A stretch of DNA of 64,000 nucleotides, from assembly GCA_036172245.1 (NCBI GenBank), contig JAYWIR010000005.1, positions 806,001 to 870,000 on the forward strand, read 5' to 3'. Made by a program: the position numbers and the translations under genes. The notes under the pieces were generated by a model. That model did not search any database. It saw nothing but the letters and a program-made list of their open reading frames with translations, and was not told where the DNA came from. Below, in pieces: positions 4,509 to 26,338 of the stretch. Origin of the DNA: Raillietiella orientalis (taxonomy: Eukaryota). How positions within the stretch are numbered: the stretch's first letter is position 1; each line of letters starts with the position of its first letter.

Positions 4509-4564
4509 CTCCGGCGGCGAGCGCCCCGGGACTCCTGACGCAGTAGCGTCGCCGCCCGTCGACC
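4509..4564 (+). other. Probable spliced 5' UTR portion of integrin exon 1 (non-coding exon upstream)
   Basis: Pyrimidine tract ending ccccccag at 4508 (alternative ctgacgcag at 4543); candidate upstream donor tag|gtgagc at 3951. Confidence 0.35.
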
Positions 4565-4725
4565 ATGGCGCTGGTCGCAACGGCCGCAGCGATCCTCCTG
4601 GCGTGCCTGCGGGCGCCCGGCGGCGCCTTCAACCTGGACGAGCGCAGCGCCCTCGTACACCGCGGCCCCGAGGGCTCCATGTTCGGGTTTGCCGTGTCCC
4701 AGCACACTGACCAAGGAAAGAGCTG
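4565..4725 (+). CDS. if: Integrin alpha exon 1: signal peptide and start of propeller
   Basis: gacc[57 protein letters not shown](W); donor TG|gtgagt. Confidence 0.93.
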
Positions 4726-7700
4726 GTGAGTCTCTCCCCCTTTCTCTTTCGCGCTCCCGGTCCGCCTCCCTCACCTCCCTCCGGGGGTGCCCCGTCCCCC
4801 TTCCTTCGAGTGCGCTTCGTCCTGCCGGCCCAGGAGCGGGAAGGGTCAACGAAGCTTCCGGGAAGCGTCTTTGCCTTCCTGTCCCCGGCCCGTAAGACCG
4901 GAGGAGTCCCGAAGGTGCGCGCGCAGACGCCGTCCCTCGACCTCGAGAGGGCTGCAGTTCTCCGGGGTGTCCTCCTGCGCGCACCACGGGCGGAGGGGGT
5001 CCCGTTTGCGGCCTGCCTCAGATGTCCTCGGGGTGGGCGGGAGGTTCAGCAGCCCCGCGTTCCTCCCAGGAGCTGGGAAGTCGGCGCGCACAGCTGTGCA
5101 CAGCTCTTTGTGGCTCCTGGGGCTGAGCAAGGGCCGAGCCAGCGGTCGCCTTCGTCTTCAGTGGGAGTCGACGGCCCGGTCCGCGCGCGCAGGCGCCTGG
5201 AGCTTACGCGGCGACCTTCCTTCCGTTCAAAATGGTCCATCGCAAAACCCGTGCAAGGCAGTCGAGCCTCCTCCCCTCCCCCGCCATATGCGCCGCTCCT
5301 TCCCGTGGCGCGGAAGTGGACCGCCGTGCGCAGCGCACGCGGAAGCCTCTGCTGCCTGCCTGCTTCGCTCCCTCCCGGGGGTCTCAAAGCCCCGCGTGGA
5401 CTCTCTGCGGACTTGCTCCCCCCCTCACCCACCCACACTCGCTCGCTCGCGCGCGTGCTGCAAGTGCTTAGCCCCACGTTTGCTTTCCTTGGAGGGAAAG
5501 GGAAGGTCAAAAGGAAGGAACGAAGGCAAGGAAGAAGAGGAAGAAAGAAGGAATTTTCCTGCGGCGCTGGAACCGCGGAAGCGTGCCGCATCCCTTCTGA
5601 GGAATCGTCCGTCCTCCGTCCGATGCACATTTGCGGCAGAGGGTCGGCACCGGGCAGCTTCGGTTCTTGCTGAAGGCGTCTAACCGAGCCGGGAAAACAT
5701 TTTTCGCATTCGGCACTTTTCGCATTCGTGCCAGGGGGGGCAGTTTGCCTGTCAGGACAGCGGGCAACGTGATGGTACGCGTGCCATCGGATGACACGCG
5801 CGGTTGCATACGCGGTCGGAGTTGGCGCACTGCCCTCACCGGTGTCGATTGCGTAAACAAATTGTAGTACACAGCTTGCGGTACGGTGGGCTGTGTCGTT
5901 TCAGCAGCACCAAAAGTCGTAATCAGATGTCCAAACTGAAATGGTTTATGGAAGCTTTAACAACAATAATAAAAATACAACTGTACAACAGAGTAAGTAT
6001 GTACTCGAGTCAGCCTCGCAAGCTTGCAGAGCAGCAAACGGGGTCACTTGTTCCCAATCAACAAATTTCCTTTTTATGTAGCAGGTACAGCACTTGTCGC
6101 TATAATTCCCAGTGTGTGACTTTTTGTACGGGGTTCGCCATCAACGTACGGTAAGCGTGTGGCACCTGAGGTTTTCGCGCGCAATCAACCCCAGTCCACA
6201 AGAGTTACGGGTTTCGGATTTCCATGTTGGTTTGGGATCCCTGCTCTCCTTTGCTGGCACGTGTCGGAAGCTTTGCCTCCATTGTTGTCTCCATTGCGGT
6301 GCGCGACCCAGGGATGCCACGTTTTTTCGGATCAAGCCCCTGACTAATTGCGCTTCTTGTAGACTGTAAAGCGTGTATAATTTGTAAACGTGTCTTGGGG
6401 ATATGCCCCTCCCCCCCCCACTTCTCATTTGTAAGAATTTCTTCTCAAGCAAGGTTTTTAAGGCAGTGTAATGGTATGTAGGTTAATTCTGTCTAAGGGT
6501 TGAGGATTCGCTTAATCTTAAGTTATTATCTTTGGAAAGTTTCCGTTTTCTTTTTTTCCTGCAGTGTCAGCGCGAATGGTAGCATTCATCGAAATGATTC
6601 AAAAGATGTGCTTTCGCTCTGAGGGAAGTTTTCAAGGTATGTTGCCAATAAGTTTTTCGAATACCTTGAATTTGTCAGAATCAGCTGAAAGTATGGGTAT
6701 GAAATAAAGCACGAAGATTGGGTGTGTGTTTTCCCCTTCTTCCTCTCTCTCTTTCCCTGTTTGATTTTCCCAGAGGCTTAATTTATATCGAAATTTGAAA
6801 GAGAAAAAAAGGGGGGGGGAGGAAGAGAAGAAAGTAGCGGCTCACTGCAGGTCTTTGTACGGGACTGCCTGTGCCAAATCCGCATCACGAACCTTTCCTT
6901 TACGTGGCTCACGAAAAGAACACTCCAGTATCTTTTCTTCAACACGAAAGTTTATGATTTCGTTGGAATTCGTTTCCCTTGATCATCGAGGAAGTTTCCT
7001 TAACCGTCGTCATTATTGAAGATTTCGAAGATAATCCTTTCCTTTCATTTACTGTCCCGAAAAATACTCTCGGGCATCGGGAGCAGCTGCCTCACTTTAT
7101 TACGGAAAGGCACGAAGCACACGGAACGCCTCTCAGTGAGCGAGTTTTCTGGAAGTTTTCGCCGGATAGCTTTCCTTTCGCTCGGCTGCGCCCGTTTTCA
7201 CGGAATTCGGGGACTTCCCGCGCGCGCGCTCCTCTCCTTGGGAAACGGTCGCGTGAGGTGGCCGAAGGAGGGAGAAACTGCAGGGCAGGAGGGGAGGGGG
7301 GGGGTTCCACTTCCAGGGTTCGTGCCGTGCGCCCACTTGCTGTGCCATCTTCCTTCCGCTGCCCTGTGGAGCAACTGCGACGGACGGGTTGCCCGGAACC
7401 TTTCCTCAGATGCTGCTTCACTTTCTCGGAGCGCACTGATTAGACCTTCTGAGAATTTTTGTGCATACAATGGGACGTTTTTCCTCTTAATGGCCGCGCC
7501 TTTCCCTTCCGCCCATTTTACGAGTAGGGAGCTTAAGTTTCGCCTCAATTTGCATGCGGAGGTGCTTCGGGAAAGTCTGCCGCGCGCGCTCTGATTTTTT
7601 CCTCCCTATTGTTCTGCCAGTTGCGGGATAGAAAACAAAACGAAAGCAAACACAAATACAACAAAACAAAACCAGGGGGGGAGAAGGGGGGGGAGTTTTT

Positions 7701-10700
7701 TTTTGCTTCTTCTTCCTCGCTGTTGTTGTTTTCGCGTCTCTTCCTCGCTTTCTTGCAGTGCGTCCGGGTGGGGAGTTCTTGACCGCAGATCGCCGCGGCG
7801 GTTCGTCTTCGGGGAGGCTTTTTTTTCCCTTCTTTTATTCTCTGCCATAGGAGTGGAAAGCCTGGCGGAACGCTCACCTCGAAGACGATGACGCGCTTCC
7901 TGTGTTTCGCGACGCCGCCGCTTCGCGGAACCGCGGTCCGTCCGACGAGTTCGGAGAGCGCGCGCTGCGGCTGCTAATTGCCGCGAATGGACTGACGTGC
8001 AGGTGTGAATCGATACGCCGCCGCGGCGGAAGGTCCATTCTTTTCCGAGGTGGCGCCGGGGGCATCGGGAAACTTTTCCTTCTTTTTTCCCCTCCCCGGC
8101 CCGAGCACAGGATCGTCTCGGTCCGGGGCGGACGTTCCTGCGCGTGGTTTCGTTTCCTCCTCCTCCTCCGGCTGCTTCGGGAGGAGGGGTCGGCGCTCGG
8201 GCGAGGGAAAGCGGCTGCCACCCACTCGCGCGATGCAAACCCTCGGGCCCGTAACCTTCCTCTTCCCTCCCCCCCCCCCTCTCCCTCCCACCGCATTTGG
8301 CAGCACTCCACCCAGCAGCCTCCTTTCGGCGGCGGCCGGTTTTCGGGCTCCCAGCGCGGGCGGGCGCCGGGGAGCCCACGACCGGATGCCGACCGGTTCG
8401 CGTCCCTCCCCCGCGTGCGAGCGAGCGACTCGCCCGGAGTCGCACGGCAGGTCGACTGGCGGCGGCACGCGCTCTCTCTTGGCGCACGCGTTTCGTTGTC
8501 GGTCCCTCGGGCTGCGTCGCGCCCTCGAAAGAACACCGTGGTCCAGCTGGTGGTGGAAGAGAGAGGAAGTCAGCCAGGAAGACTGGCGCGGAATGCTGGG
8601 AGCGCTGCTCGCGACCCGGGTTCGCGCAGGTTTCCCAGAATTCCGCCGCTCGCCTCAGCGCTCGACTTTCGAGGAGGGGGGAGGGGTGTTGCAGGCGTTC
8701 GCCCCTGCTCCGCGAGTCGCTCCGGTGGCGACCTCTGTGCGGTCCTGCCGATCTGCCGGTCGTCGTCGCTAGGTGGAAGGAAGGACAGGTGGCGCTCGGC
8801 GAACGCCAGCGCGGACCGACCCGCTGCAGGGGCGAGGTCGCAGCCGCTCGTCCCCCCCCCCTCCTCCCCCCTCCCCTCGGCCGCCCGAAAGTCGAGTCGA
8901 GCCGGTGAGCCTTTCCCCGCCGAAAGAGTCTCCGGCGCCGTTCGCTCCTCCTCTTCTCCGTCTGCGCCGCGCCGCCGCCGCGGCTGTGCAGGCGCGCGCC
9001 CGTGCAGCTCGCGCACCCAGCAGCTCATCGCGCGGTGGAGACAGGAGAGGTCTCTGGGGCACCAGGGTGGTCCGAGGCCTTTATTTTTTCATCCTTCGGA
9101 GCTTTCACTCTGGAAGCGGGTGGGCGGGCGCTCCAGTTTGTTCCTCCCGATGTCCTCAAAAGGCACCCTGGGCGTGTTTCTTCTTTTCTTTCTTCTTCGT
9201 GCGTGTTTTTTTCCCCCCACTGCGCGGGTGCATTTCCGAGCCCGACCACCAGGATGCGCTCCAAGTCGCCGCGCCTCCGCCGCCTTCTATTTCGGGAGCG
9301 AATCGCAAGTTCGGAGGGAGGGAGGGCGTCCCAAAAGTGTGTGCCGATGACCCAGTTCGCTAAATAGGTCGAACCTGTTCACCCATTGGTTTGGGGAGAT
9401 CGGAGGGGGACCGGGGAGTAGGGATGCGCAGCTGTTCTGGAGGAGGCGGCCCGTCGGGCGGGATTAAGGGAAGGGGCTCGCGAGGGATTGCGTGCGACTC
9501 CGCAAGGGGAGAGTGCGCTTCCTCATGGGACGCCCGCCGTTCTTGCCCGCGGGGCCCGCCCTTGAGCGTGGCAGTCGGCGCCGCTGACGCCGGCCACCTT
9601 TCCGGAAGCCTCTCTCGAGGTTGTCTGGGCGGGGATGCGCGGAACGGGGCGAGGGCCCTGGCCCGATCGGCACTCGCCTTCTTCCGTCTTTCTTTCGGCG
9701 CGAGCAGGAAGCGGTTGCCTTGCCAACGTATGTCCTCTCGCGGCCTGAAGACGCGTGCGTGCGTTACGCGCGCCCTGCGCGTCTCTTGCGCTTCGCCTCC
9801 CACCTCCTCCTCCTGCCGCCCTCGCGACTGGCAGCCAGACCAAGGCTGCAGGCGCGTGCGCACCTTCGGCCGGGCACGCGGCGTGACGGTTGCTGGCGCG
9901 CGACACGCGGGGAGCTCCGCGCCATCTTCGCGCCCCCTTCTTCTCCTCCGTCAGGAACACTCCCGGGTGCACATCCTGCGAAGCGCACGCTCCCTCTGGA
10001 GGCGTCCAACGAAGGTCACAACCCTCCTCTGCCGCCCACGACTGCAGATGACCTTGCAGAAGAAGAGAGAAAGCGGAAGCAGCAGGCGACGCCGACGCCC
10101 GCCGCTTCTGGTCTCCGCAGCAACATGCGAGCAGGCACGCTATGTCCCACGCGGGAGGCCTCGCCCCCGGTTCTCCTATTCTCTCCACCATTCTTCTTCC
10201 GTTCCCCGTCCGTTCTCCCACCGTTCCTCGTGCGTTCCTCCTCCATTCGTCGTCCATTCTCTCATTTCCTGTGCGCTCCCGTGTGCCAGTTGCTTCCTCC
10301 TACTCTTCCCCTTTCGGTTTCCTCTCAGGCCTCTCCAGGAGGCGTTCCCGCAGGATCCGTCTGCGAGGGCCCGCAGACGCATGCGCAGCCGCGTCACCCG
10401 TCTGGCCTCTCGCTCCTCTGCCGCAGACGCGACGCCCTCCCTGCTGCATCTGGTCACAGAGTCGGCGGTGGCGGAGGATGAACATCTGCGCCTCTTCCCC
10501 CCTCCCGTCCCCTTTCCTCGCTCCCCGCCTCATCTTCCCTGCGTCCCGCGCGTACCTTATCTCTCGGTCGTCCGCGGCCCTATCGCCGGACCCCCTCGCG
10601 TCTCCCCCGATGGACCCCCACTGCTTCCTCGGATCTCCGGGAGTGCGGCGGGACTGGCTTCTCCTCCTCAGCGGCGGTCCTCCCTGACCTCCGCTGTAGG

Positions 10701-13700
10701 TTTCCGTTCGTCCTCCGCCTCAGGCAGTGCCCGCATGCTCCCCTTTCCCGGGAGAATTCGCGCGCGTTCGCGTGCCGCCTTTGTTCCTCCCGCGCGGAGC
10801 ATGCGGTCGCCGCTTCCGGCTCCTAGGCTGCCTGCGACGACGCTCTTCGTCCGCAAGGTCGCCCGCAGTTGCGGGCGGAAAAGGGGGAGGGTGTGCGAGC
10901 ATCTTCGTATACCTGACGTTGCCCGTGCCACCACCACTTCAGGGAGGGGGTGGTTGCGGCGGTTTGCGAGATTCGTTTTCCCGCCGCATGGTGCCTGCTG
11001 CCCCCCTCCGCCTACTCGCATCGTTTCCCGTCGCCCGCGGCGATTCCCAGCGCTTCGACCTTCCTCGCTGCCTACCCGCGCTCCTCCCGCACGAGGATAA
11101 TCTGGGATTTCCTGGCCCCGTGGGCGACTCTGCTGTCCCTCGCCCCCTCTCCCTCCTCCTCCTCCGCGTCCTCCCTCGCGCACATCCGCCGCCACGCGAC
11201 TGGCGGCCTTCATGGCGGCGGGCGGGAGGACGCCCCTCGCAGGAGCGCATGCAGCCACCGGACTGGGGCGGAAAATCTTTGCACGTCCACGGACTTCCTC
11301 GCCGTCTCGCTTGCAGGTCACAGGGGAACCTTTCGATCCTCAAGGCAGTTCGCTGCTCGCCCTCTCCTCCTCCCCATCCCACCCTTTTTCTACTTCTCCC
11401 CCACTACAGTTCATTCTTCTCCCATTCCTCTTCCTCCTCCACTACGCGTCTTCGTCCTCGTCTATTCCACCACCACTTCTTGTCCTTTGTCCCTTTTGTC
11501 TTTGTCCACCATTTGTCCTCTTCCTTCACCACTCTTCGTCCATTTTCCATTTCTCCATCCCTCTTCATCCATTCCTCCACTCTTCCTCCGCTATTCCGTT
11601 TCTTCACCCTTCTTCATCCATTCCTCCACTTCTCTTCGTCCATCGCTTTCCTGTTCCTCGACCACTCTTCGTCCATTCCTCGACCACCCTTCCTATGGTT
11701 CGCTCGTCGGCTCGGTTTGCAGTTGCCCCGTGGCCGTCTTCTTCATCCGCCACCTCCGGGTCGACAGAGCTGCGAGGCCCGCTGCGCCGCCTCCTCCCTC
11801 ACCTTCCCGAAGTCCATCGTATCCGTACGCTGGCGTAGGGGCGCGGTTGGTGTATGCAGGCCGCCGCCTTGGCGTTACCCCTCGAGCCGCGAAACATCCG
11901 AGGGGGGCCGCTGCCTCCCCCTTGGCTCTCGCTGGTCCGCGGCCTCGCCGCTGCTGACCCGGGGCGCGGTCGGCCGACTTGCCGCAGCGCTACGCCGGTG
12001 CCTTGGCGCGCCGCGGGCCGGGCCCGCTGCAGCAGCTTCTGCGGGGGCGGCTCCGCCCTCCGGACCGCCCCTCGGCGAGCGGCCTCGAGTTGCTGGCGGG
12101 AGGCGAAGAGCCGAGCGGCCGGGGGCCGCCCGCGCTCCTCCCCGGCCGGAAGCGGCGGCAGCGCAGCGGGTGGAGAGACGTGGGCGGACGGGTGCGCGTG
12201 GGTGTTCGCGTGGGGGATGCTCGACCTCTCGCCCCTGCTCGCGGCTGCCGCTTCTCCACCCCATCGCGAGGGGGTGCAGGGGAGCCTCGTCGCGCGACGC
12301 TGCCGCTGCGCGCGCGCTGAGGCGAAAGCCACCGGCCCGCGGGCGCGGCCATCTGGTGCCCAGATGGCCTCGCCAGCTTCTCCCCCCACTTCCTGCGGCC
12401 CCGCGAGAAGGAGCAGCCGTTACCTGGTTGTTTGCTTTCCCCCGGCGTCTCCTATTTTTAGTCCGAGGGTCGGCGTGAGACTGCACCCGTGGGGGCGGCC
12501 GATGCCGATTTTTCTTTTCTTCCCCTCCCCCCCCATCTTCGTTCGTTTGATCTGGGGGGGGGGATAGGTGGGGGACCATGCCAGTTCGCGCGGTTCTTCG
12601 GCGGGAGAGGCGAAATGGCGGCGTTCCTTTCGTTCGACTGCGTCTGCGCGCGCGGACCGGCTGCGAGGAGGCTGAGGCGGCAGCTCTGCCTCGCGGGGCG
12701 GTTGACGAGTTCCTCCCCCCCTCCCCCTCCTGCGCCTGCTCTTCCAGGATTCGTCCCCTCCCTCCCCTTCCGGCCCTGCGCTTCCCTTCTGGTCTCAAGG
12801 ACAGCGTCTTCCAGCGTTCCGTCTCCTGGTGACGGAAGGGAAAGCCGGAGGGGAGGGGGGACGCGACCCCTCGGGAGCGCGAAGGCGCGTGGGCCGCAGC
12901 AGCCCTCGCAGGACAGGCCAGCGACCAATCCAGAAGAGGGCATCGCGGTGGTGACGGCGAAGGAACCCCGGAGGGCGACCCGAAAGGGTGGGGAGCTGCC
13001 GAGGGGCGCCGCGCGTCTCCTACGCGTCATCACCTGAGCGGGCAGCTGCCGCCGGTGACGGCAGCGTCATCCCTCTGTCGTCCCCGTTCCCCCGGCGGCG
13101 CGGGAATTCAGCGAGAGCGCGACCGCCTGCGCCCCCTTCCGGAAGCGAAACGCCGTGCGTAGGCGGCCGGGTCGCCTTGGATGGCGCCGCTAGGGAAGGC
13201 GCGACCCGTGCGTCATCGAATGTGGCGTGGGCGTGGCAGCGGCAGCTTCTCGAGCGCCCACGTGCGGCGGCAGCGACGGCTGGGAAGCGAGGCGGTGATG
13301 CACCAGGACGCCCACGGCAGTGGAGGAGGAGGAGCAGACGGGGTGCTCCCCTACCCTCCCCGTCGGCTGCCGGCCCCGGGGACGCTCGACCGCGGTCTCG
13401 GAGACGCCCGACATGTCCGCTCGGTTTGCGCGCGCCGCCGCTTTCCCGCCGCGGAGCCACGCTCATCCTGCCACGTCTGCCGCTTCGCGGTCTCCGCGAG
13501 GAGCTGCCACGCGCAGATTCGGGATAGGCGAGAGGGGTGGGGTCGGGAGGTGTAGTGGTGTCGTGCCCCTCCGGTTCTACCCCTTTTCACTCCGGCCGGG
13601 ACCCCTCCTGCGCCTCCTTCACTCCCGTTGCCGCCGCCGCCTTCTCAGGCAGCCGGGAGGCTGCGGATCTTTTCTGGGACGCCCGCCTCTCCCTCCCCCT

Positions 13701-16700
13701 TCCTCCCCGGCCATGCCCCGAGTTTGACGGATGAGGGAGCTTCGAGAAGGAGCGCGCGGTCGTCCGCTCAGGAGCAGTCGGGCGCTCTCGCACGGGGGAG
13801 CACTGAGGCGGGGGGTGGAACGATGGGAGGATGGGAGGAATTCTCTCGCGGAGACGGGAACTCCGGTCTGCACTTTCAGGTTGCCATGGAAAGCGGGAAA
13901 AGTCGAGCGGAAGGGGGGGGGGTGAGGGGGCCTCACATGGGGGGGAGGAGTGGGACGAGCCTGGAGGCCTTGGTCCGAAGGGGGGGGGGACAGCAGCAGT
14001 CTCTTTCCGACCGCCGAAACGGATGGTTCTTCCCCGATCGGAAAGGACGCGCTCTCGCGATCCCAGCCGCCGTCTCCCTGGCAACGACCCCTCCCTCTTC
14101 GCCCCCCTTCCTCTCCAGGTTCCGAGGGAGGGAAAAAGAGGGCAAGCTGGGGCAGAGGGCGTCCCCTGCAGGAACGCCGCCAGCGCCTCCCACAAGCCGC
14201 TTCTGCGGCGCCATGCGCCTCCGCGACCCCTCTGAATGACCCGTCCCTTCTCTCTTCCAGGGTGCTGGTGGGCGCGCCAACCGCGCAAACCGACCAGCCG
14301 GGAGTGGATCGTGGCGGCTGCGTCTTCCGCTGCAGCACCGAAGCGTCCGACCTCTGCCAGCAGATCCCCTTCGACAGGACAGGTGGGTTGGCCTTGCTTG
14401 CGGGTCGCGAGGGGGAGGGGAAAGGCTGCAGCAATAAGAGCGGAGGAAGGGGGAATGAGGAGGAGGAGGAACAAGACACGGAAGAAAAGGAGGAAGGGGG
14501 AAGAAGAAGAGGATGAAGAAGAGAAAGAAGAGAAGGTCATCACCACCATCGTCCTCGTCTTCACCTCTGCCGAGCACCACCACCACAATCCTCACCAGCT
14601 CGACTCTCTCACCACGTCATCATCACTATCGTCGCTGTTGCCATGACCACCGTCCTCCTCCTCCTCGTTTTCATGCCTGTCCCACCACTCCTACGATCGT
14701 GGTCGCCGTTGCCACCCCCGACGTGGACTCGACGCCGGGGACGCACCCTGTGAAGGGTGAGGAAGGACTGCAGGGCGTGGGAAGGAGACGAAGGCGGGAA
14801 AAGCGAAGGTGGGGTGAGGTCAGCGGTCTCCTCCTGTCCTCTCCACGCGGCGGCGGCGACCCTCTTGGAACGCTCGTCCTCCCCGTAGGTGGGCGCTGCG
14901 TTTTTCTTCTTCTTCTGCTCCCCCCCTCCCTCGCCCCCTTCCTTTCCCGGAAGCGCCTCCTTCGTCCTCCGGGCGGGGGCGACCCTCTCCTTCGTCGCAC
15001 GTGGGCGCTGCGTGGGCTGGGCAGCTCTTCCGCCCATCCCTCCTCCATAGCCTCGCACTGGCCGCGCATCCCTGGGAATCGGAGGGGGGGAGAACCGGAT
15101 CTTCCGAAGCCCGAGGCGGACCCGCGCCTACCGGGAACCGACGTGGCACGCTCCAGCCTCCTTGGCAACCGCCCTCGGGAGGTGCCGCCCGCTCTTGCCT
15201 GTCTCCTTGGAAACAGCGCTCCCCGGATGTCGCCCGCGCTGCCTCCTCCCTCTTGCGCTCCCCCTCGCTGTGAGATGCCCGAGGGGATCGCACTGTCCTT
15301 TGCTCGGCAACCCGAGGTCGTCCCCTGGCACGTGTCCCCGGAGAGAGAGGTGCCACGGGACGCTTTCTCCCACTCCTCCCTGCCGTCCTCATCCGAAGGC
15401 TGCTGAGGAGGCGCCGCGCTGCCTGGAAGATGCCGTGGCCGTGGATACGCCTCCGCGACGCCTTCCGCGCGTCTCCATCTCTCGGGGTGCGCGAGCTAGA
15501 TGCAACCGAAGCTGGAAAAGATCCAATCCTCCCCCCTCCTCCCCCCCCTTCCGGGGCGGCTAAGAATAGCAGGGAGCTCCCCCGCCCGGAGGTGCGGGCA
15601 CTGGCGGCGGCGGAGTGCCGGCGTGTTCGCCCCCGTCTCCCCCGCGTGCGGGGGTGGCCCTTCCGGTCCGGATCCCCTCTTCCCACCGCCTGCCCTTTGC
15701 TTCCGTTGCGTGGTCCGGCGACCGCGGTCACCGGACAACTACCGACTGCTCCTCCTCCCTTTTCCGCGCACGCGGCGGCCTCTCATCCGCTTCGAGGCAC
15801 CACAGCGCCGACTCCGCCTCGCTGCCGGCGGGCTTCTCCTACACCTCACCTTTTCCAGGCAACCAAAACGTCTCCAACCAGCAGCTGCACCAGAAATCCG
15901 CGCAGTGGTTCGGCGCCACCCTGGTCAGCACGGGAGAGATGGGCGCAGTCGTGGTGAGTACGCCCGCGGGCGCGGGCGCGGCTCAAGATGGGAGGGGCGC
16001 AGCCCCAGAGGGCGCTCGGACCCTCCGGGAGAGATGGTCCCGCCGAGATCAGGAAGCGGGGTCATGACCTTCACCCTGCAGTGCCATCTCCGAACCCGCC
16101 TCGAGCGCTCCCGTTCCCTAGGGACGCCCGTTGGGAACCCCCATCCATGGTCTCCCCCCGGCATTCGTTGCCCCTTCAGCCGCCCCCGCGCTCGTCGTCC
16201 TTCGCCACGGACGGATAGTCCGCAGCGACGGGGTGCGCTCGCGTCGGAGGGGAGGGAAGGTCGCGCGACGGGCGGGCAGCGGCAGCGAGTCGCCTCCATC
16301 GCGGAACGCTGTGGATGGCCATTCCCTTGACGGGGACCGTGGGGCGGGCGCTCCTCCTGAGGGCACGGCGCGCACTCTCTTCCCGCCGCCCACGCGCCCC
16401 GCAGGCGGGCTCGGCCAGGGGGTAAAACTCCGCCGGCCGCTTTCGGCAGTAGACGGCGAGAGGAGGACGAAGGTCATTGAGGGGTCACCTCCCAAGGTGC
16501 CTGCCGGCTTCCGGCCGGGCACTCCGACGCCTCCGTCAGATCGCGCCGCGGAAAGGAGTCGCCCGGGGGCAGGGAGGGGCGTTGCTGGGGTAAAGAGGTA
16601 CAGGTCGGAAGGGCGGGGGACGCTGCTGCTCCGAAGGCAGGGGCCTGAGAACCCTCCACTGGCCGACGGGGCGGAGGGGCTGGGGAACCCTTCATATGTT

Positions 16701-18176
16701 CCCGGGTTCCGGGATCTCCCCTGTGGCACCGTCCGGAACACATCGCGCTCTTGCCGAACCCGCCGGAGGGTGAGGGTGGGGGGGCGTGACCCTTGGCGTC
16801 TCTGCAGGGCGCGGGTGCTCTCGGACCATGGAGCGCGCGGCGAGCTGACCCGAAGGGTCACCTTTGTGTCTCCGCAGGCTTGCGCCCCAAGGTACGTGTG
16901 GTACACGTCCACGGGCAAGAGGAGGGAGCCCGTGGGCACCTGCTTCGTGTCCAGCAGCACCTTCGACCAGTTCTCCGAGTTCTCCCCCTGCAGGACCTGT
17001 GAGTAACGCGCACGCGCGCGGCTGGGTATGAGTGCTCTGCCGCCGGGTGGCCGGGATGGGGAAAGGAGGGGGAAGGGAGAAGAGCCGGCTGCCCTGCGCC
17101 GTGTCCGGCGTCCCGAAGCGAGTGCCGGACCCCCCTCCCTTTTTTTTCCCCGGCTTTCCCAACTCCGCCCCCTTCCCTTCCTCCGGGAACATGCGCCCGG
17201 GATGCTGCCCCCGAATGCCGCAGCCGTTTCCTTGCCGATCGGGGGTTCCTCGTCGGGGAGTAGGGGCAAGGCTGTGGAGGAGGGAGAAAACCCATGTCCG
17301 GAGCGCCGTCGGGTCGCACGCGTCGTACAAGCCACGACGGCGGCAGCGACCTACGGAGAAAGGCGAGAGCGGCGCGCATGCTCTCGGGGGATGCGGCGTG
17401 GCGGCAGGCGACTGCGGGCCGCGGTCGAGCCTGCGCGAGGGGCTCGCTGATGGCCGCGCGGCAGCCTTGGCAACGCGGAGACGCTCGGAAGAACCTGTTC
17501 GGGCGCGAGAGAACCGAGCTGTGTTCTTCTCGACTCCCCCCCCCCTCCTGAGCTCGTTTCGTTCCCACGACGACTGAGACGGCGGCGGCGGCGCTCTATA
17601 TAAATAGCATGTGACGAAAGAGCCATTCGGAAGGAAGGCGACACCGCGCCTTTCCTGCGCATCCAGCGCACGTGGGAGTGTATAGGAGGGAGAAGGGGGG
17701 AGTTCGACGGCGCGTGCGGCTCCCCACCCAGCCCTGCCTGCCTCCTGGTGGGGATGCGCGTGGCCCGCGGGCCCCGGGGGCGTGACGGGCGGCGGAGCGG
17801 AACGAAGCGACCGGGCGCGCGAGAGAGCGGGCAGGTCGCCCGGCGGCTGCTCGGCGGGGCGTCGTCATCGTTGCACGCCTCTCCTCCCCTACCCGCACAG
17901 CGAACCCCGGGGGCCGTTCGCCGGTCACTTCGCCCCCGGAGGCGACCGGCAATCTCCGGGCGCGGAGGAGGCTGGGTGGAGGGAGAGGGGAGGTGCGACC
18001 GCTTCTTCGGCACCTCCGAAGACGTCGGGTGCTGCATGCTTGCTGTTGTGGTTCCCTGTTTTCCGTGTGCTCACTGATTTCTCTGTCTTCCCGAAATCTT
18101 TCCCCCAGGCTACTGTCGCGGTAAGTCCTCACAGATGCTTTTTTTTCCTTTTTGGTTGCCGCCGTAGTCGTAGCGG

Positions 18177-18207
<31 letters not shown>

Positions 18208-21200
18208 TACTGCCGGCTTTGCTTGTTGCACGGCTTTGTCCGAGGGAGGCCGCTGGCGCCGCTGCTTGCCGCGCCGCAGCGAGCGACGGGCACCACTCAC
18301 TGATGCATTTCTTGTCTCCTAGCGTCGTCATGGGGATACCACAGGCAAGGATCGTGTCAGGCGGGCTTCTCGGCGGCCATTAGCCCGGTTGGTGTGCCGC
18401 GCATAGCGGGGGGGTTCTGTTCGAGGGCGCGACCGCGCGCGCGCGCTCCGGTTGTTTGCCGGGAGCAGAGGGGCAGGCATTGCCCGACCCTTCCTTTCCC
18501 TGCTGCTCCCCCGCTCCTGTGACCTGTTCCCCGCGCGTCCCTCGCGCTTTCTTCGCGCAGCGATCGCGCCGCCCCGCGCGTTGACCTCCAGGTGACCTCC
18601 GTCTTTCTCGGTTGCCCCCCCCCAAGGACAAAGAGCTCCTCTTCGTGGGAGGAGCGGGAAGCTACTACTGGCAAGGTATGCGCTCCCGGGTTGTGTGCGG
18701 TCTCTGGAGTTAGTTTGCGTGTCCGCCAGGTCAAGTGTTCGTCAGGAGGCTGCTGCTGCGCTCCCCGACCCTCAGCACCAAGGAGGGACCTGCCCACGAT
18801 GACGATAGCTACCTGGGATACTCCATGGCCGTGGGGGAGTTCTCCGGGGACGGGGCGCGCGACCTGGTCGTCGGCATGCCCCGCGGCGCCAACCTCACCG
18901 GAAAGGTCGGTTCTTCCTGTCCTTCGCCCCTCCTCACCTTTCTGGGCAGATCGTGCTATACAATTCGAACCTGACCAACCTTTACAACATCACCGGGGAC
19001 CAGTTGGGTTCGTACTTCGGCTACTGCGTTGCCGTGGGCGACATCAACGGGGACGGCCTCGACGACATTCTCATCGGCGCGCCCATGCACGCCCACCCCA
19101 ACAACGAGAGGAAGTACGAAACGGGAAGAGTGTACGTCGTGTACCAGAACCGACGGGTGAGAGCGGGACGCGCCGCGATGCCCCGGGCTACCCACCATCC
19201 CTCCCAGCGCTCGCGAAGAGGCCGAGCTTGGCGGCGTCGTGACCCCCAGCGGACGGGGCGCCGTCACGCTCGGTCTCCCTGTTAACAGCCGTCTGACGCT
19301 AACCTGGACGCCCGTAACCAGACGGTATGCCTGCCCTGACACTTTGACCGAGGTCACCTCACTGATGCAGTGTTTTTTTTTTCTCTCTCTCTTTCTCTCC
19401 CGCCTGCTCCCCGACCGATCGCGCCCTCCGTCCCTCCCCCTTCTCTCTTTCTTTCTCTCCGCTCGCTCCCTCCCCGCCGACGCCGGCGCCCGGACGAGCA
19501 GCACCGCTTCCGGCATTGGAGCACCCTCGACGGGAAGAACTCCAAGTCCCGCTTCGGGATGGCCATCACGTCGCTGGGAGACATCAACAAGGACGGTTAC
19601 GGAGGTAAGGTTCCCTTCCCCCCCCCATTCCCCCTCCCCCCTCTTCCTCCCTCTCCTTCCTCATCGTCTTCCCTCTCTTCCTTCCTTTCTCCTCCTCCTC
19701 TTCCCTTCCTCTTCTTCCTCCCCCTCCTTCCTTCCTTTCCTACCTCTTCGTCTTCCCTTCCTTCCTTCCTTCCTTCCTCCTCCCTTCTTCCTCATCTCCC
19801 TCCCTCCCATCCTTCCTTTTCCCCTCTTCTTTCACCCCCTTTCGGAAGCAGCGACACACGCAAAAAAGAACAAGAGGGGAACACAGGTGGGTCCGGTGGA
19901 GACGACGCGTAGGACAGACGCGTGGAGAAGGGGGGGGGGAGGAGGGAGTGACGTAATGCCCCGGAGCGCAGCGGCGTCCGACCGTCCTCCCGCCCGCGCC
20001 GGGGAGGAGGTGCTGCTTCCGCGCGCGCTGTTCTCGCTGCGAACCCGGGGCGCTGCTGTCCTCTTCCTGCGGCTCCTCCTTCGCGTACGACGGCTGGAGG
20101 GAAGGAGGGAGACAGGTACACGGGAGGAAGCGAGGCGAGCGAGTCTGAATGTAGAGGTCGGAGAGCCAGGGCGACGCCGCTTTCCGGAGGGAACCTGAAG
20201 CGTGTGGACCAAAGACACCGGCATGACGAGGCCAGAAAGGCGCCTCCCTCGACCCTGGCAAGGCCAGGGATGGGGGGGGGGGGATCGGAAAAGACGCTTG
20301 CGCAGGGAGGGGGTGCGACGGTCGGCCACGGGGACTGCGGAGGATAAAGTGGCGTCTCCACGCGGGCCGCTAGCAACTCGCGGGGAGACGGGCGGGGGGC
20401 TGCGCTCGCGAGGTGGCGCTCGACGGAGTCTCCCCTGGAAGGATGCGCTCCTTTCCCTCCCCCCCGGCCACCCATGTCGAAGAGGTAGCGGAAGCCGCTG
20501 CACGGGGACTCTTCGCGGCGGGCGCATCCTGGAGGGACGGGGGCCTCCCGGTCCCAGGCGTTCTCTGGTCACCTCCTCCCCCTACGCACCCCCGCGAATC
20601 CTCCCTCCTCCCCCGCTCGGCTCTCCTTCGGACCCGACTTCTCCCTCTGTTCCTTCTCCCAGATTTCGCGGTGGGCGCTCCCTACGACGGTGGAGGCGGG
20701 GCCGTGTACGTGTTCCAAGGGTCCCCCAGCGGGGCAATGGAGGAGCCGTCGCAGGTGCTGTTGGCGAGGACCTTCGGCCCCAACCTGAGAACCTTCGGCT
20801 TTTCGCTGGCCGGCGGCGTTGACATGGACGCCAATGAGTACCCGGACCTCCTGGTGGGCGCGTACGCCTCCGACGCGGTCCTGTACCTCCGGTACGCCAC
20901 GTCGCCCCTTTTAGCGGGCGGCCAGCGGCAGCAGAACCCCCTTCCTCTTTGCAGAGGCCGTCCCGTGGTCGCCCTTCTTGGACACCTGGAGTTCGCGTCC
21001 ACGTCCAAGCAGCTGGACCTCTCCGAGAAGAACTGCGAGCTCCAGGACCGCACCGCGGTCTCCTGCGTGCGGCTGGACTACTGCTTCAACTACACCGGCG
21101 TGGGTGCCTCCCGCAGGATGGGTGAGCGAGCATTCCCCGCTCCTGCGAGACCGCCTTTCTTCCAGATTTTCGCGTCCACTACAAGCTGGACGCCAAGAAA

Positions 21201-24200
21201 GAGAAGAACCCACGGATGTTCTTCCTGAACCAGGAGGGTCAGAGCGTGCGCAACGCCACCGTCTCCCTGGACAAGGTCTCCTACTTCTGCAACAGCACCT
21301 TCGTGTACGTGAAGGTCAGTGGGTCGTTGCCCCCGAGGAGGCACCGCGCTGACCCGTCCTCGCCCCCCGGGGACTCCTGCAGCCGGGCGTGCGCGACAAG
21401 CTCACGCCCATAGTGGCCGAGGTCCACTACAGCATCGACGACGCATACGACGGGCACCTGCAGGGGCAGCGGCAGCTCACGCCCGTCCTGGACCTGTCGC
21501 GGCCTCCGGTGCACAGCGACACCATTCATATCCAGAAGAACTGCGGAAGCGACAACCTATGCATCCCAGACTTGCAGCTCCTCGTCCGGTCGAACCTGGA
21601 CGCGTATCTGCTGGGCTCGCTCGACAGGATGGAGTTTGACGTGCTTATCCGGAACGAGGGGGAGGACTCGTTCGAGTCGACCTTCTACATGTCCATCCCG
21701 GAGGGTGTCAAGTTCATCAACGTCAACAGGACGGAGGTCTCCAAGGAGGCGATCCTCTCCTGCTCCGCGCCGGTGCCTCGCCGCCACGTCCTCAAGTGCG
21801 ACGTGGGCAACCCGCTGCCGGCCTACGGGCACACCGCCTTCAAGGTGTACCTGCGCCCTCAGCAGGGCGTCGAGGCGCGCCACAAGGCCTTCCGCTTCGA
21901 GATGGAGGCCAACAGCACCAACCAGGAGCTCGATGCCAGCAAGGCGGACAACGTGCGCCTCTTCGACATCCCCATCCGGGTGGAGACGGATTGGAAGGTC
22001 ACCGGGTGAGCGCGCGCTGTCGGCCGTGATTTTCTGGTGGCTCTGCCCTTTCCCCAGGGAGGGGAGGGGGACCGGACGGTGGCTTCCGCGCTGGCCCATC
22101 CCCTTCCTCCTCCTCACCATGACGCGCCACCACCTGCTCTTCCCGGGTAGCGGCGCCGAAGACCGTAGCGGCGGCCAGCGTTCCAATGCCGCCGCAACGC
22201 GGGTGCGCTGCGGGGAAGCGGCGGCCGGAGAGGAAGATGTGCGTTTCCAAGGACGACGAGACGGATCTTGCGCGCGCGCCCTGCGCCCCGCCGCTGCATT
22301 CTCTGCTTGCGCCTCCTCCTCCTCCCCCCCTTATTTCCCTGGAGGAAAGGGGGAGCCAAGCTCCCTCTTCCTTTCGGGGAAAGGAAATCCTGATAGACCT
22401 CCTCCCTCCCCGTTCCCCTTCTGAGTTTGCTTGCATGACCGCAGGGCTTCCCGGCCGGACTCCATCAACTACAACCTCTCGGACTACCGCATGACAGACC
22501 ACACACGAGAGGGTCACGTGGGTCCGGAGGTGGTGCACCTGTACAGCGTGAGGAACCTGGGACCGTCGGATATCGTGCAGGCGGAGGTGTTCATCCTGTG
22601 GCCCACGCGGACCCTGAACGGTAGCCAGCAACGCGCCTCTGTCGGCCGTCTTCGCAACAACCGCCCCCTTCTGTTGCAGGCGAGCCCCTGCTGTACCTCC
22701 TCGAGCAGCCTGTGGTCCAGGGAGCGGGAGAGTGCGAGACCGTGAAGGACGTCAACTACCTCCGGCTGCAGGTGAGCGTCCACGCTCTCCTAGGGTGCCA
22801 AGGGGGTGGTGGGCAAGGGATAAGCGGGCAAGGGACGTCGCGTCTCGCGGCGCCACCTTCCGATGAGCGCGGAAGCGCCCCCTTCTCTCCTGCAGCTCGA
22901 CCACAAGAGGCTGCCTGTCTTCAGCGCGTTTACCGAGGTGGAAGCGGCAGCGGCAGGGGCATCGGACGAGACCCAGAGCGTCCATCTGAACAGCTGGGGC
23001 GAAGGCTCCCGCGGGCACCTCTCCACAGGGGGGAGAACCCACGGTAGGCGACGGAGGCCGCGTTTTCCCCACTCGTTCCTTTCTGTCCGCTCTCCCCTCT
23101 GCTGTAGAAACGCGTGTCATAGGGGACCACGAGGAATCCTGGAACGTGCGCCGGGAGGAGGTGGCAGAGAAGGAGGAGGAAAGCGCGAGTCAGCACCACC
23201 GCCGCGTCGGTGGAGGCACCAGGGTAGCGCACAGACAAGATGGAGGCGCTTCCTCCCTCCAGAAGCAGCACCATCACCACCACTACCATCAACAGCAGCA
23301 GACTATCCTGCGCGAGAAGAAGCCTCTGGCGGCTCCCAGGCCTGCAGCTCCGTCCCAGCCACAGCTGCCGCCGCCATCCTCATCGATGACGTCGCAGGTT
23401 GCTCGCGAGGAGTGGCAGAACTCCGGCGTCGTCTGGCAGCCGGAGCACGGCGCCACGGAAACCGAGGAGGCGACGAAAGGAGATAGCGCGCTTCAGTTCC
23501 CGCTCGTTGGATCCGACCTCTCGCGGGGCGAATACGAGGGCTACGACAACGACGATTTCTACGACTACGACGACGAGAGGCAGTACGACGACTACGGCGA
23601 GGACCACGGCTTAGCTGCGGGGCAGGAGCTCCCGGCCTCGTCCAGTGGCGTGCGGGACGCGGCGGGTCTCCAAGGCCACGGAGCCGCCTCGGGAGAGACG
23701 CACAGCGGTTACGACGCGAGCCGCGGCACCGAGTCCTCGTCTTTCTCGTCCCGCGGGTCTGCCATCGGCCACCAGGAAGAGATCCTCCACTCGTCGTCTA
23801 CCGGGCTCCGAGAGGGTCAAGAGCATGTGTCCTCCGACAGCGTCCGTAACGCAGATCTCCAAGGCTACGGGAGTGGTCAAGGAAAGACCTACGGCTCCTA
23901 CGAAGGAGGCTTCGTCGAATCGTCGTCTTCCTTCACGTCCCACGGGTCTGCTGTCGATCAGGGGGAAGAGACCCGCGGATCCTCCACCGATCTCCGGAGC
24001 CAGGGACGTCAGTCTGTTCAGTCTGCTGGCGACGTCCGTGACGCAGATCTCCAAGGTCACGGGAGCGGTCAGGGAAAGACCCATGGCTCCTACAGAGGAG
24101 GCTTCGTCGAATCGTCGTCTTCCTTCACGTCCCACGGGTCTGCCGTCGATCAGGGGGAAGAGACCCGCGGATCGTCCACCGATCTCCGGAGCCAGGGACG

Positions 24201-26105
24201 TCAGTCTGTTCAGTCTGCTGGCGGCGTCCGTGACGCAGCTCTCCAAGGTCACGGGAGCGGTCAGGGAAAGACCCACGGCTCCTACGGAGGGAGCTTCGTC
24301 GAATCGTCGTCTTCCTTCGCGTCCCGCGGGTCTGCTGTCGACCAGCGGGAGGAGGCCCGCGGGTCGTCCACCGGTCTTCGTGGTCAGGTGGCTGCGGCCT
24401 CGTCCGGCGGCTCCTGGGACGCCGCGGGCCTCCGGGGCCACGGAGTTTCCTCGGGAGAGACGCGTGGCGGCCATGACAGGAGCCGCGGTTCCCAGTCGTC
24501 GTCATTCGCGTCCCGTGGATCTGCCATCGAGCATCGGGAGGAGGCGCGCGAGGAGGACGTCGCAGTGCGTCATTCCGCGGACGAGGGCCGCTCCGATCGA
24601 CAGCAGCCGTCGAGGAGCGCGTCCACCTACGGGAGCCTGTCGGCCTCTCGCCATCGGTCGGCCGGCCGCGAGGGCACGTCACAGCGAAAGGATTACTCCT
24701 GGAGCACCAGCACGGAGTCCACCGTGACCTCGAACTACAGCAGGGACGGCTTCCAATACTCGAGCAGCCACCGCGAGAGATCTTCCGCGAGCGTGTCGTC
24801 TTCCTCGTTCGGGCTGGATGGCGGCGATGAGCGGACTGATGTCGCCGGGGACGGAAACCGCCGCTGGACGGCAGCGAAGCAGCAGCCGCAGGGCGAAAGG
24901 GGCACCGCCGCCGTGCACTCCGGCAGCCAGTCGGCCGAGTCGGTAGCGGGCGACGGTGGTGAACTCCGACTGGGCGGTGAGCCAGACCACACGGAAGAGA
25001 TGAACCGCAGGCTGTATGGGAGCAACCAGTTCCGGTGGTCCGCCTTTGACCTGGGAGAGGGAGGTGCCGACCCGGATGGCGCCAACGCGGTCGACGTCGA
25101 CGGCGTTCCCGCGAAGGGTCGCCCCGATCAGTGGCAGGGCTTTCTGGAAGGCGCGTCCGCCCAAGTGGGCTCCAAGCGCCAGCAGCAGCAGCACCTCCTA
25201 CGAGGCTCGAGCGAAGCCGGCGGCCAGGAGCGCTCGTCCTCCGCAAGCGCTGCTGCAGGGGCAACTGGCCAGAGGAAGACCTACGATTTCCAGTCGTCGT
25301 CGTCTGAAGAGCGCAGGGAGGAGTTTCACGGCCACAAGACCCAGCGGCACCCGAATGCTGGAGACGTCGTCCAGGAAACCTGGCACTCGTCGTTCAAGTC
25401 CGAGTTCTCCGGTCTCCACCCCACCAGGAAGAGGTACGAATTATCCCCCCCTCCCGATTACACGTCCTCCCATCCGTCTTCACTTCCTCTTTCTGCTCCC
25501 AGGCGAGGAACTGACGGGCAAGGTCGGCGCAGCTACGAAGACGAGCTTCAGTGCGGTTCCTCCGAGTGCACCTTCATCCGCTGCGTGGCAGGTCCCCTGG
25601 CGAAGGACCAGCACGTGCTCTTCGGCGTCCGGTCGCGGCTCTGGGCTCACACCATAAGCAAGGCAGGAGGAAGGGGGAGGGCTCGGCCGCGTGACCTTGG
25701 CCCTCCGTCCTCTCTCGCAGCTCGGCTTCCAGAAGGTGGCCATCGTCTCGAAGCTGGTGACCAAGGTGACCGAACTTCCCCACAGCGTGGATCCCGGGTA
25801 CCTCGACTACCAGGTGCAGGAAGTGCACACCATGGTCAACCCCGAGGAGGGCTACTACCAGCCCAAGCCCATCCCGTGGTGGGTGATTCTGCTGGGAATC
25901 CTCGGAGGGTTGCTGCTCCTCATGCTGATCGTGCTGGGCCTGTGGAAGGTGAGCGGGAGGATCCTCGCTCGAGGCTCTGCCCGACCTCACCCCTCCCCAC
26001 CAGTGCGGGTTCTTCAAGAGACAGCGACCGGACGGCGGCGCCGGCAACGACAGGGAGCCCCTCAACCGCAACGGCCACTGCCACCCGGAGGACCAGTCGT
26101 TGTGA
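4565..26105 (+). CDS. if: Integrin alpha subunit, alphaPS2/inflated-like (RGD-binding class); 20 coding exons, 1832 aa
   Basis: Exons 4565-4725, 14261-14382, 15859-15953, 16878-16998, 18323-18387, 18627-18675, 18730-18905, 18950-19156, 19502-19604, 20663-20891, 20955-21121, 21166-21314, 21383-22005, 22445-22620, 22680-22771, 22896-23043, 23108-25433, 25503-25662, 25721-25948, 26004-26105 sum to 5499 nt with consistent phases. Signal peptide followed by FNLD; FG-GAP repeats ([73 protein letters not shown]); [17 protein letters not shown] as in Drosophila alphaPS2; [14 protein letters not shown] genu; TM segment; KCGFFKR. Confidence 0.96.
11380..11695 (+). repeat. Pyrimidine-rich degenerate repeat (CTTCRTCCATT-like)
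   Basis: Recurrent cttcgtccatt / cttcatccattcctccact units; a similar patch lies at 10180-10265. Confidence 0.6.
14261..14382 (+). CDS. if: Integrin alpha exon 2
   Basis: ttccag|[42 protein letters not shown]|gtgggt. Confidence 0.93.
15859..15953 (+). CDS. if: Integrin alpha exon 3
   Basis: ttccag| [31 protein letters not shown] |gtgagt. Confidence 0.93.
16878..16998 (+). CDS. if: Integrin alpha exon 4
   Basis: ccgcag| [41 protein letters not shown]|gtgagt. Confidence 0.94.
18109..18120 (+). CDS. if: Candidate 12-nt alternative microexon of the integrin (S replaced by CYCRA)
   Basis: Long pyrimidine tract then tcccccag|GCTACTGTCGCG|gtaagt; phase 1-1, frame-preserving, no stop. Confidence 0.65.
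18184..18207 (+). repeat. (TGC)8 microsatellite downstream of the microexon; candidate Muscleblind (YGCY) cluster
   Basis: tgctgctgctgctgctgctgctgc, with further tgct/cgct motifs nearby. Confidence 0.8.
18323..19604 (+). CDS. if: Integrin alpha exons 5-9 (propeller blades 3-6)
   Basis: 18323-18387 [21 protein letters not shown]; 18627-18675 [17 protein letters not shown]; 18730-18905 ..[30 protein letters not shown]..; 18950-19156 ..[25 protein letters not shown]..; 19502-19604 [34 protein letters not shown] (tandem gagcag acceptor). Confidence 0.93.
19615..19842 (+). repeat. Nearly pure polypyrimidine (CCTT/CCT) tract in integrin intron 9
   Basis: About 220 nt with very few purines. Confidence 0.85.
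20663..23043 (+). CDS. if: Integrin alpha exons 10-16 (blade 7, thigh, calf-1, start of calf-2)
   Basis: [125 protein letters not shown]. All introns GT-AG. Confidence 0.94.
23108..25433 (+). CDS. if: Integrin alpha exon 17: 2326-nt exon encoding a low-complexity S/G/H/Q/E-rich insert in calf-2
   Basis: ctgtag|AA ACG.. in frame with ORF 23146-26109; open for 2.3 kb; ends RK-AG|gtacga; phases match the flanking exons. Confidence 0.85.
23650..24543 (+). repeat. Coding tandem repeat, five units of ~192 nt (64 aa)
   Basis: Units start at 23650, 23842, 24034, 24226, 24412. The inner three are near-identical ([63 protein letters not shown]); the outer two are diverged and resemble each other. Confidence 0.95.
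25503..26105 (+). CDS. if: Integrin alpha exons 18-20 (light chain, TM, cytoplasmic tail)
   Basis: 25503-25662 ..[30 protein letters not shown]; 25721-25948 ..[27 protein letters not shown]; 26004-26105 [33 protein letters not shown]. Confidence 0.93.
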
Positions 26106-26338
26106 CTAGGCGGGAGGGACGGCGTCATCTTCGCCTGGTGAAGGAAGGCAAGCAGCAGCAGCAAGTCGTCGCCCGAGATTGCGCTGACCACCGTCCTCTG
26201 CGCGCCGCCGACGCGCGCCATCCCCTCGTCGCCGTCCCAACAGAGACTTCGCATCGCCGCCGACGCCGACGTCAGCGAGCGCTACCAATCCGCCCTGCGC
26301 GAGGACTCGCGCGCCACCTAGTCCAGTCCAATGATGAT

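Follow-up and report, generated by a model that had tools for sequence, protein, structure and literature searches.

At the muscle attachment sites of arthropods, the RGD-binding integrin is alpha-PS2. In vertebrates, the integrin alpha chains alpha6 and alpha7 carry alternative propeller exons, known as X1 and X2, that tune ligand binding. These differ from the candidate 12-base microexon described here in belonging to the laminin-receptor subfamily, in affecting a different loop, and in being larger, mutually exclusive exons. Alternative splicing of Drosophila alpha-PS2 (inflated) produces the PS2C and PS2m8 forms and, like that proposed for the candidate, acts on the extracellular propeller, where in Drosophila it shifts ligand preference. 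According to an excerpt of PMC2148222 that cites Graner et al. 1998, laminin alpha1,2 (Wing blister) is bound only by the PS2m8 form together with betaPS4A. The Drosophila cassette follows Tyr-Trp-Gln-Gly of blade 3, whereas the candidate is located in the blade 2-3 loop. A PS2C/m8-type alternative exon is found at the Tyr-Trp-Gln-Gly intron in insects, decapods, and Artemia. At the present locus the intron at this site is only 54 bases long (18676-18729), and the classical PS2C/m8 cassette therefore appears to be absent; the 54 bases contain an in-frame stop. A full-text literature search returned no description of a microexon or alternative exon at the position of the candidate in alpha-PS2 or another arthropod integrin. 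If real, the candidate would be a new case of the known alternative splicing of integrin alpha ligand-binding loops.

An alpha-PS2-like integrin gene

The window (the whole 64-kb stretch of DNA that was analysed) contains one gene of this family, for which the following features were laid out.

4553..26106 (approximate), + strand: integrin alpha-PS2-like gene, placed by tblastn of arthropod alpha-PS2 proteins, inferred junctions, and the Pfam domain Integrin_A_Ig_3
16878..16998, + strand: exon 4, 121 bases, ending in phase 1, one base past the Ser-Pro-Cys-Arg-Thr codons
16999-17004, + strand: exon 4 donor, GTGAGT
18323..18387, + strand: exon 5, encoding the Trp-Gly-Tyr-His...Cys-Gln-Ala-Gly part of the loop, with its best-scoring 3' end at 18387 and an alternative at 18393
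22990-26106, + strand: open frame of 1039 codons, covering the 3' part of the gene

Protein matches, tblastn, structure alignment, and Pfam agree that the gene encodes an alpha-PS2-type (RGD-class) integrin alpha, the identity already assigned to it when the DNA was read without database searches (hereafter the sequence-only reading). The 40-residue translation of exon 4 gave 120 protein matches, mostly named integrin alpha-PS2, with identity of at most 76% and a span that takes in insects, crustaceans, chelicerates, and other invertebrates; the source species and near relatives were not among them. By tblastn of arthropod alpha-PS2 homologues, about 1000-1200 residues were mapped at 45-50% identity, the top overall match being Artemia franciscana alpha-PS2 (about 49% identity over some 1000 residues). 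A Daphnia homologue (P0127) aligns with the alphaV and alpha5 structures at an E of 1e-150 or better. The homology on which assignment to the RGD class is based extends across the propeller, thigh, and calf domains.

Eleven introns of the gene were fixed by junction search, while the 3' exons past about 22730 are only partly laid out. The boundaries of exons 4 and 5 first proposed, 16998 and 18323, proved to be correct, and intron 4 has a length of 1324 bases. GC content over the gene is about 0.60-0.71. The open frame at 22990-26106 contains Integrin_A_Ig_3 at residues 831-891, in its last part only; the rest of this frame matches in position a long insertion in insect and Artemia alpha-PS2, and the reading frame changes among the terminal exons. 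When 83 of the window's 143 long ORFs were scanned with Pfam, the integrin domain was the only one found. Intron 1 (about 9.5 kb) includes an AT-richer block at 6000-8000, with a GC content of about 0.50, which may be a mobile-element remnant; no Pfam domain was found in the long ORFs scanned across this block. A further GTAAGT is present at 5993. Intron 4, otherwise 65-90% GC, has an isolated TATA-like AT-rich element, tatataaatagc, at 17597-17608, about 500 bases 5' of the candidate microexon.

The candidate microexon and its splice signals

The candidate and the signals around it are as follows.

18070..18078, + strand: branch-site motif CTCACTGAT, containing TCACTGAT at 18071-18078
18079..18108, + strand: pyrimidine tract and acceptor CAG, the first AG 3' of the branch motif
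18109..18120, + strand: candidate 12-base cassette microexon within intron 4, phase 1-1 and stop-free
18121..18126, + strand: consensus donor GTAAGT, one of five GTAAGT on the + strand of the 64 kb
18137..18154 (approximate), + strand: T-rich run after the donor, within a T-rich island at 18001-18244
18184..18272, + strand: YGCY cluster with (CTG)7 at 18186-18206, a putative Muscleblind-type intronic enhancer
18296..18304, + strand: second copy of CTCACTGAT, 19 bases upstream of the exon 5 acceptor

The branch motif, pyrimidine tract, CAG acceptor, and GTAAGT that had been noted around 18109-18120 were all recovered on the sequence. The branch A at 18077 is 31 bases upstream of the candidate AG (18107-18108), with the CTGAT motif at -35; the tract measures 27 bases, and pyrimidines account for 80% of the 25 bases before the CAG. 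Branch motif, tract, first AG, and GTAAGT are thus all in place, the combination by which splice-site competence was judged. At 12 bases, the candidate falls within the size range of microexons (at most 30 bases), preserves the frame, and is free of stops in the host frame. Splicing in silico reproduced the phase 1-1, stop-free insertion of four residues that had been described: the frame is kept, no stop arises, and the junction Ser becomes Cys-Tyr-Cys-Arg-Ala, a net gain of four residues. Inclusion would split intron 4 into stretches of 1110 and 202 bases. From these signals we infer use in mRNA, giving roughly even chances that the alpha-PS2 gene has in these 12 bases a genuine cassette microexon specific to its lineage. 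That inclusion is also regulated, so as to form a splice switch with functional consequences, seems unlikely.

The same signals could instead have arisen by chance. An AG and a GTAAGT would then happen to stand 12 bases apart in a pyrimidine-rich, microsatellite-bearing stretch, the pair would be ignored or used at noise level, and the loop would always be short; we regard such a chance pseudo-exon as a substantial possibility, at something below even chances. GTRAGT occurs eight times on the + strand of the 64 kb, three of these being the donors of exons 1, 3, and 4 and one that of the candidate; within the gene span the + strand has five, of which three are true donors. A scan was made for GTRAGT with an AG 3-60 bases upstream, the 25 bases preceding the AG being at least 80% pyrimidine. 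The candidate was the sole match on both strands of the window (128 kb), and its uniqueness in this much real sequence argues against chance.

The gene's eight longer introns (15.3 kb) were also shuffled in blocks of 30, 60, and 120 bases, 1000 times each. Full criteria added to the hexamer and tract a YTRAY branch motif without an intervening AG, a length divisible by three, and the lack of a stop. Shuffled introns contained on average 0.1-0.3 hexamer-plus-tract matches and 0.002-0.003 matches to all criteria, against one observed, figures that are optimistic because the thresholds and motifs were picked after the candidate had been seen, so that chance would really produce more matches, perhaps ten times as many. 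The expectation of so few full matches under local shuffling speaks against a chance pseudo-exon, while the post hoc criteria and the many windows scanned, which inflate the apparent rarity, weigh on the other side.

A position matrix trained on a small set, the 11 donors and 12 acceptors of the gene, rated the candidate donor at 9.4 bits, eighth among the 1074 GT sites of the gene span. The candidate acceptor, at 3.6 bits, is within the range of the true acceptors but ordinary, being equalled or bettered at 133 of 1249 AG sites. Loose matrix thresholds (donor at least 8, acceptor at least 0) gave six pairs in the introns, of which the candidate alone is divisible by three. The ordinary acceptor and the existence of six pairs at looser thresholds count in favour of a chance origin. 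The same is true of the T-rich islands, which are frequent in the gene's introns and mostly unrelated to acceptors: because only one of the 12 islands in the gene is at a true acceptor, the island around the candidate was dropped as evidence. RNA folding of 18060-18200 paired the end of the microexon and its donor with 18149-18160, with a z-score of -1.8 that was equalled in 10 of 200 shuffles and is not significant.

The branch motif offers a further measure. CTCACTGAT has three copies in the 64 kb, all on the + strand and within 1.3 kb of the gene's sequence; the expectation is 0.33, and three copies were reached in 1 of 100 shuffles. Besides the copies at the candidate and before exon 5, the remaining one is found 136 bases before the accepted acceptor at 19501. 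Downstream of it, about 125 bases of pyrimidine sequence (19371-19493) contain no AG, as is typical where the branch point is distant. That nine bases should be common to the candidate and two true acceptors of the gene counts against a chance pseudo-exon. Before the two accepted acceptors, at 18296-18307 and 19358-19369, CTCACTGAT extends to a 12-mer, CTCACTGATGCA. Origin of the candidate region from a repeat or duplication was considered and rejected, blastn of 17990-18330 against the window giving microsatellite matches only, and the microexon region having only the nine-base motif in common with the exon 5 acceptor region. Since the flanks are otherwise unlike and the region is not a repeat, CTCACTGAT is taken as a shared signal rather than a duplication.

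Taken over the unique scan match, the shared branch motif, and the shuffles, the splice signals of the candidate exceed chance by several partly independent measures, the matrix-rated acceptor excepted, which supports the sequence-only reading on this point.

Signals that look selected, encoding a peptide that has no precedent in the family, might also serve splicing itself. The paired sites would then aid or control the excision of the GC-rich intron of 1.3 kb, stepwise or as a decoy, and mature mRNA would seldom if ever contain the 12 bases. We consider such a non-coding element highly improbable. Recursive splicing has been described for very long introns, and intron 4 is only 1.3 kb. Recursive sites need AG/GT or a regenerated 5' site, neither of which is present here, and use of both sites would leave the 12 bases in the mRNA. 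A classical recursive splice site or RS-exon was rejected on the same sequence, in which GC, not GT, comes after the AG, and no 5' site is regenerated where exon 4 would meet the microexon (CCT/GCTACT).

Returning to the candidate as a genuine exon, its downstream intron (18121-18322) contains 19 YGCY, the maximum among all 202-base windows (mean 5.0, sd 3.05), and a count of 19 was reached only by windows that overlap this intron. The (CTG)7 is the only (CTG) run of at least five units in the 64 kb, on either strand. The coincidence of this sole run and of peak YGCY density with the candidate is a further point against a chance origin. In the part of PMC2853123 consulted, YGCY clusters 3' of an exon go with inclusion promoted by MBNL1, and a cluster in the downstream intron, the sequence mark by which a Muscleblind-type exon was judged, is found here. 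MBNL-activated cassette exons such as INSR exon 11 and ATP2A1 exon 22 resemble the candidate in having a YGCY cluster downstream of a small exon (PMC2853123, in part). Unlike in those exons, the cluster of the candidate is largely a simple CTG microsatellite and is known from sequence alone. It may be a Muscleblind-type enhancer of the candidate.

The insertion point and its counterparts in other species

The insertion falls inside the disulfide-bounded blade 2-3 loop of the propeller, whose two bounding cysteines are both present, in exons 4 and 5. The loop of the Daphnia homologue P0127 is nearly identical to that of the skipped form, and this protein aligns across the ectodomain with the alphaV, alpha5, and alphaIIb chains. 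The loop has its counterpart in alphaV at C142-C155, a segment with D148 and D150 in it, and in alpha5 in the loop starting Cys-Arg-Ser-Asp-Phe. The residues of the candidate would enter directly before Ser-Trp-Gly-Tyr-His, a segment aligned with residues of the alphaV and alpha5 ligand pockets. In alphaV, Asp150 contacts the ligand Arg, and it is named with Asp218 in papers on RGD. For alpha5, the part of Nagae et al. 2012 (PMC3317794) consulted assigns loop residues D154 and W157 to the synergy contact and the side of the RGD pocket. The sequence-only reading had put the insertion in a ligand-contact propeller loop, and this placement is supported by the alignment with the alphaV and alpha5 loop because the insertion directly precedes residues aligned with RGD-pocket positions.

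Between its cysteines, the loop of the skipped form has 13 residues. A recognisable loop was found in 193 of 233 homologous proteins; 173 of these have 12 residues, 13 have 13, and a few are longer. The length thus departs from the mode in 20 of 193, and the loop tolerates a change in length. An extra cysteine occurs in none of the 193 loops. The Cys-x-Cys of the candidate, together with the preceding Cys, would give the string Cys-x-x-Cys-x-Cys. Adding two cysteines to a conserved disulfide loop could do harm, and inclusion may conceivably rewire disulfides or change ligand choice. A chance pseudo-exon gains from these counts, given that the skipped 13-residue loop already fits the family (13 of 193) and that no loop has an extra cysteine.

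The counts bear as well on the version of a genuine exon in which the 12 bases are always included, giving a four-cysteine loop of greater length. Transcription reaches the upstream acceptor first, the branch motif is the same as that of exon 5, and the gene has no better consensus donor than that of the microexon, all of which would favour constitutive inclusion. Loop length is tightly constrained (12 residues in 173 of 193), extra cysteines never occur, and a 12-base exon is hard to define unaided. A constitutive exon is accordingly very doubtful, and its small probability is counted within the even chances given to a genuine exon.

For the cassette itself, the nearest comparison is with Artemia franciscana. 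The remark in the sequence-only reading that no microexon of this kind is known in alpha-PS2 genes should be qualified, as Artemia gene models have a cassette at exactly the same intron, of unrelated sequence. The alpha-PS2 models XP_065564580-83 (X1-X4) differ by a 30-base phase 1-1 cassette in that intron, which adds 10 residues at the Pro-Cys-Arg-Thr junction in X1 and X3 and is absent from X2 and X4. This cassette and a 29-residue region after Tyr-Trp-Gln-Gly occur in free 2x2 combination (P0121, P0122, P0013, P0123). Like the candidate, the Artemia cassette is phase 1-1, follows Pro-Cys-Arg-Thr, takes the place of the junction residue, and makes the same disulfide loop longer. It differs in size (30 bases against 12, 10 residues against 4), is unrelated in sequence, and has no cysteine. 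A search for independent short-protein support for the Artemia inclusion form gave 11 matches; none was from Artemia, and the documentation of this form is therefore confined to NCBI gene models. By analogy, Artemia is a positional precedent for the candidate, and as such it counts against a chance pseudo-exon. As far as literature searches show, the Artemia alternative site at Pro-Cys-Arg-Thr is itself undescribed.

In the model of a sea spider protein (Nymphon striatum, P0175), 15 additional residues stand at the same junction, immediately ahead of Ser-Trp-Gly-Tyr-His; these could represent another cassette or a prediction error. In the isoform sets of nine other species, no variation was seen at this junction, and variation was confined to the Tyr-Trp-Gln-Gly site.

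Metagenome contigs were scanned with the exon 4 segment alignment, which gave 73 loci at no more than 75% identity, none of them from a near relative. Among the 17 transcript-like loci there was no insertion of the candidate type, and a longer loop occurred only in the mollusc-like L038. In the genomic loci, the phase-1 intron after Pro-Cys-Arg-Thr is widely conserved. Seven complete orthologous introns from distant arthropods (about 3.5 kb) contained no frame-preserving AG...GTRAG pair. Under relaxed criteria, 15 partial downstream stretches (22 kb) gave 24 nested matches, all with poor pyrimidine tracts of at most 0.72, and several of these were the real next exon. Because the combined 25.5 kb of orthologous intron sequence has no match of comparable quality, configurations of this kind are not common background. 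The comparison of orthologous introns that the sequence-only reading had called for covered relatives of at most 75% identity over exon 4: the seven distant-arthropod introns have no counterpart of the candidate, and a different cassette occupies the position in Artemia. This lack of a counterpart in other arthropods counts in favour of a chance pseudo-exon. One metagenome locus with 75% identity over exon 4 (L004) has at 470-490 a 12-base AG...GTAAGC pair after ctactgat, about 73 bases into the intron. With a poor tract (0.64) and too little distance between branch and AG, the pair is probably due to chance.

A proposed route to inclusion and its meaning

If the candidate is a genuine microexon, we propose that the spliceosome would handle intron 4 as a pair of introns with lengths of 1110 and 202 bases. 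Removal of the first would use the exon 4 donor, the branch motif at 18070-18078, and the acceptor at 18108; the second would be removed between the consensus donor at 18121 and the usual acceptor of exon 5. Inclusion would lengthen the blade 2-3 disulfide loop by four residues and place two cysteines just before Ser-Trp-Gly-Tyr-His. As the loop would be lengthened beside ligand-pocket residues, the included form would offer the ligand a different top-face loop. The YGCY/(CTG)7 cluster, 60-150 bases past the donor, may act as a Muscleblind-type enhancer and make inclusion tissue-dependent, for example in muscle.

A wider reading, which we rate as rather improbable, would make this junction a second, hitherto undescribed hot spot of alternative splicing in arthropod alpha-PS2. 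Microexons would have been placed independently in the phase-1 intron of the loop that aligns with alpha5 Trp157 and alphaV Asp150, one of 30 bases in Artemia and one of 12 bases here. In the present gene, the Cys-x-Cys insert would give a ligand-pocket variant for muscle, driven by Muscleblind through CUG/YGCY and substituting for the apparently absent PS2C/m8 switch.

Should the 12 bases prove to be unused, they would still be a useful illustration that splice signals may seem complete on sequence with no RNA to support them. If the proposal is true, the gene would have a compact, genetically tractable specificity switch in an RGD-pocket loop, of a kind missed by gene predictors. Together, the candidate and the Artemia isoforms point to a recurrent site of alternative splicing in the integrin head.
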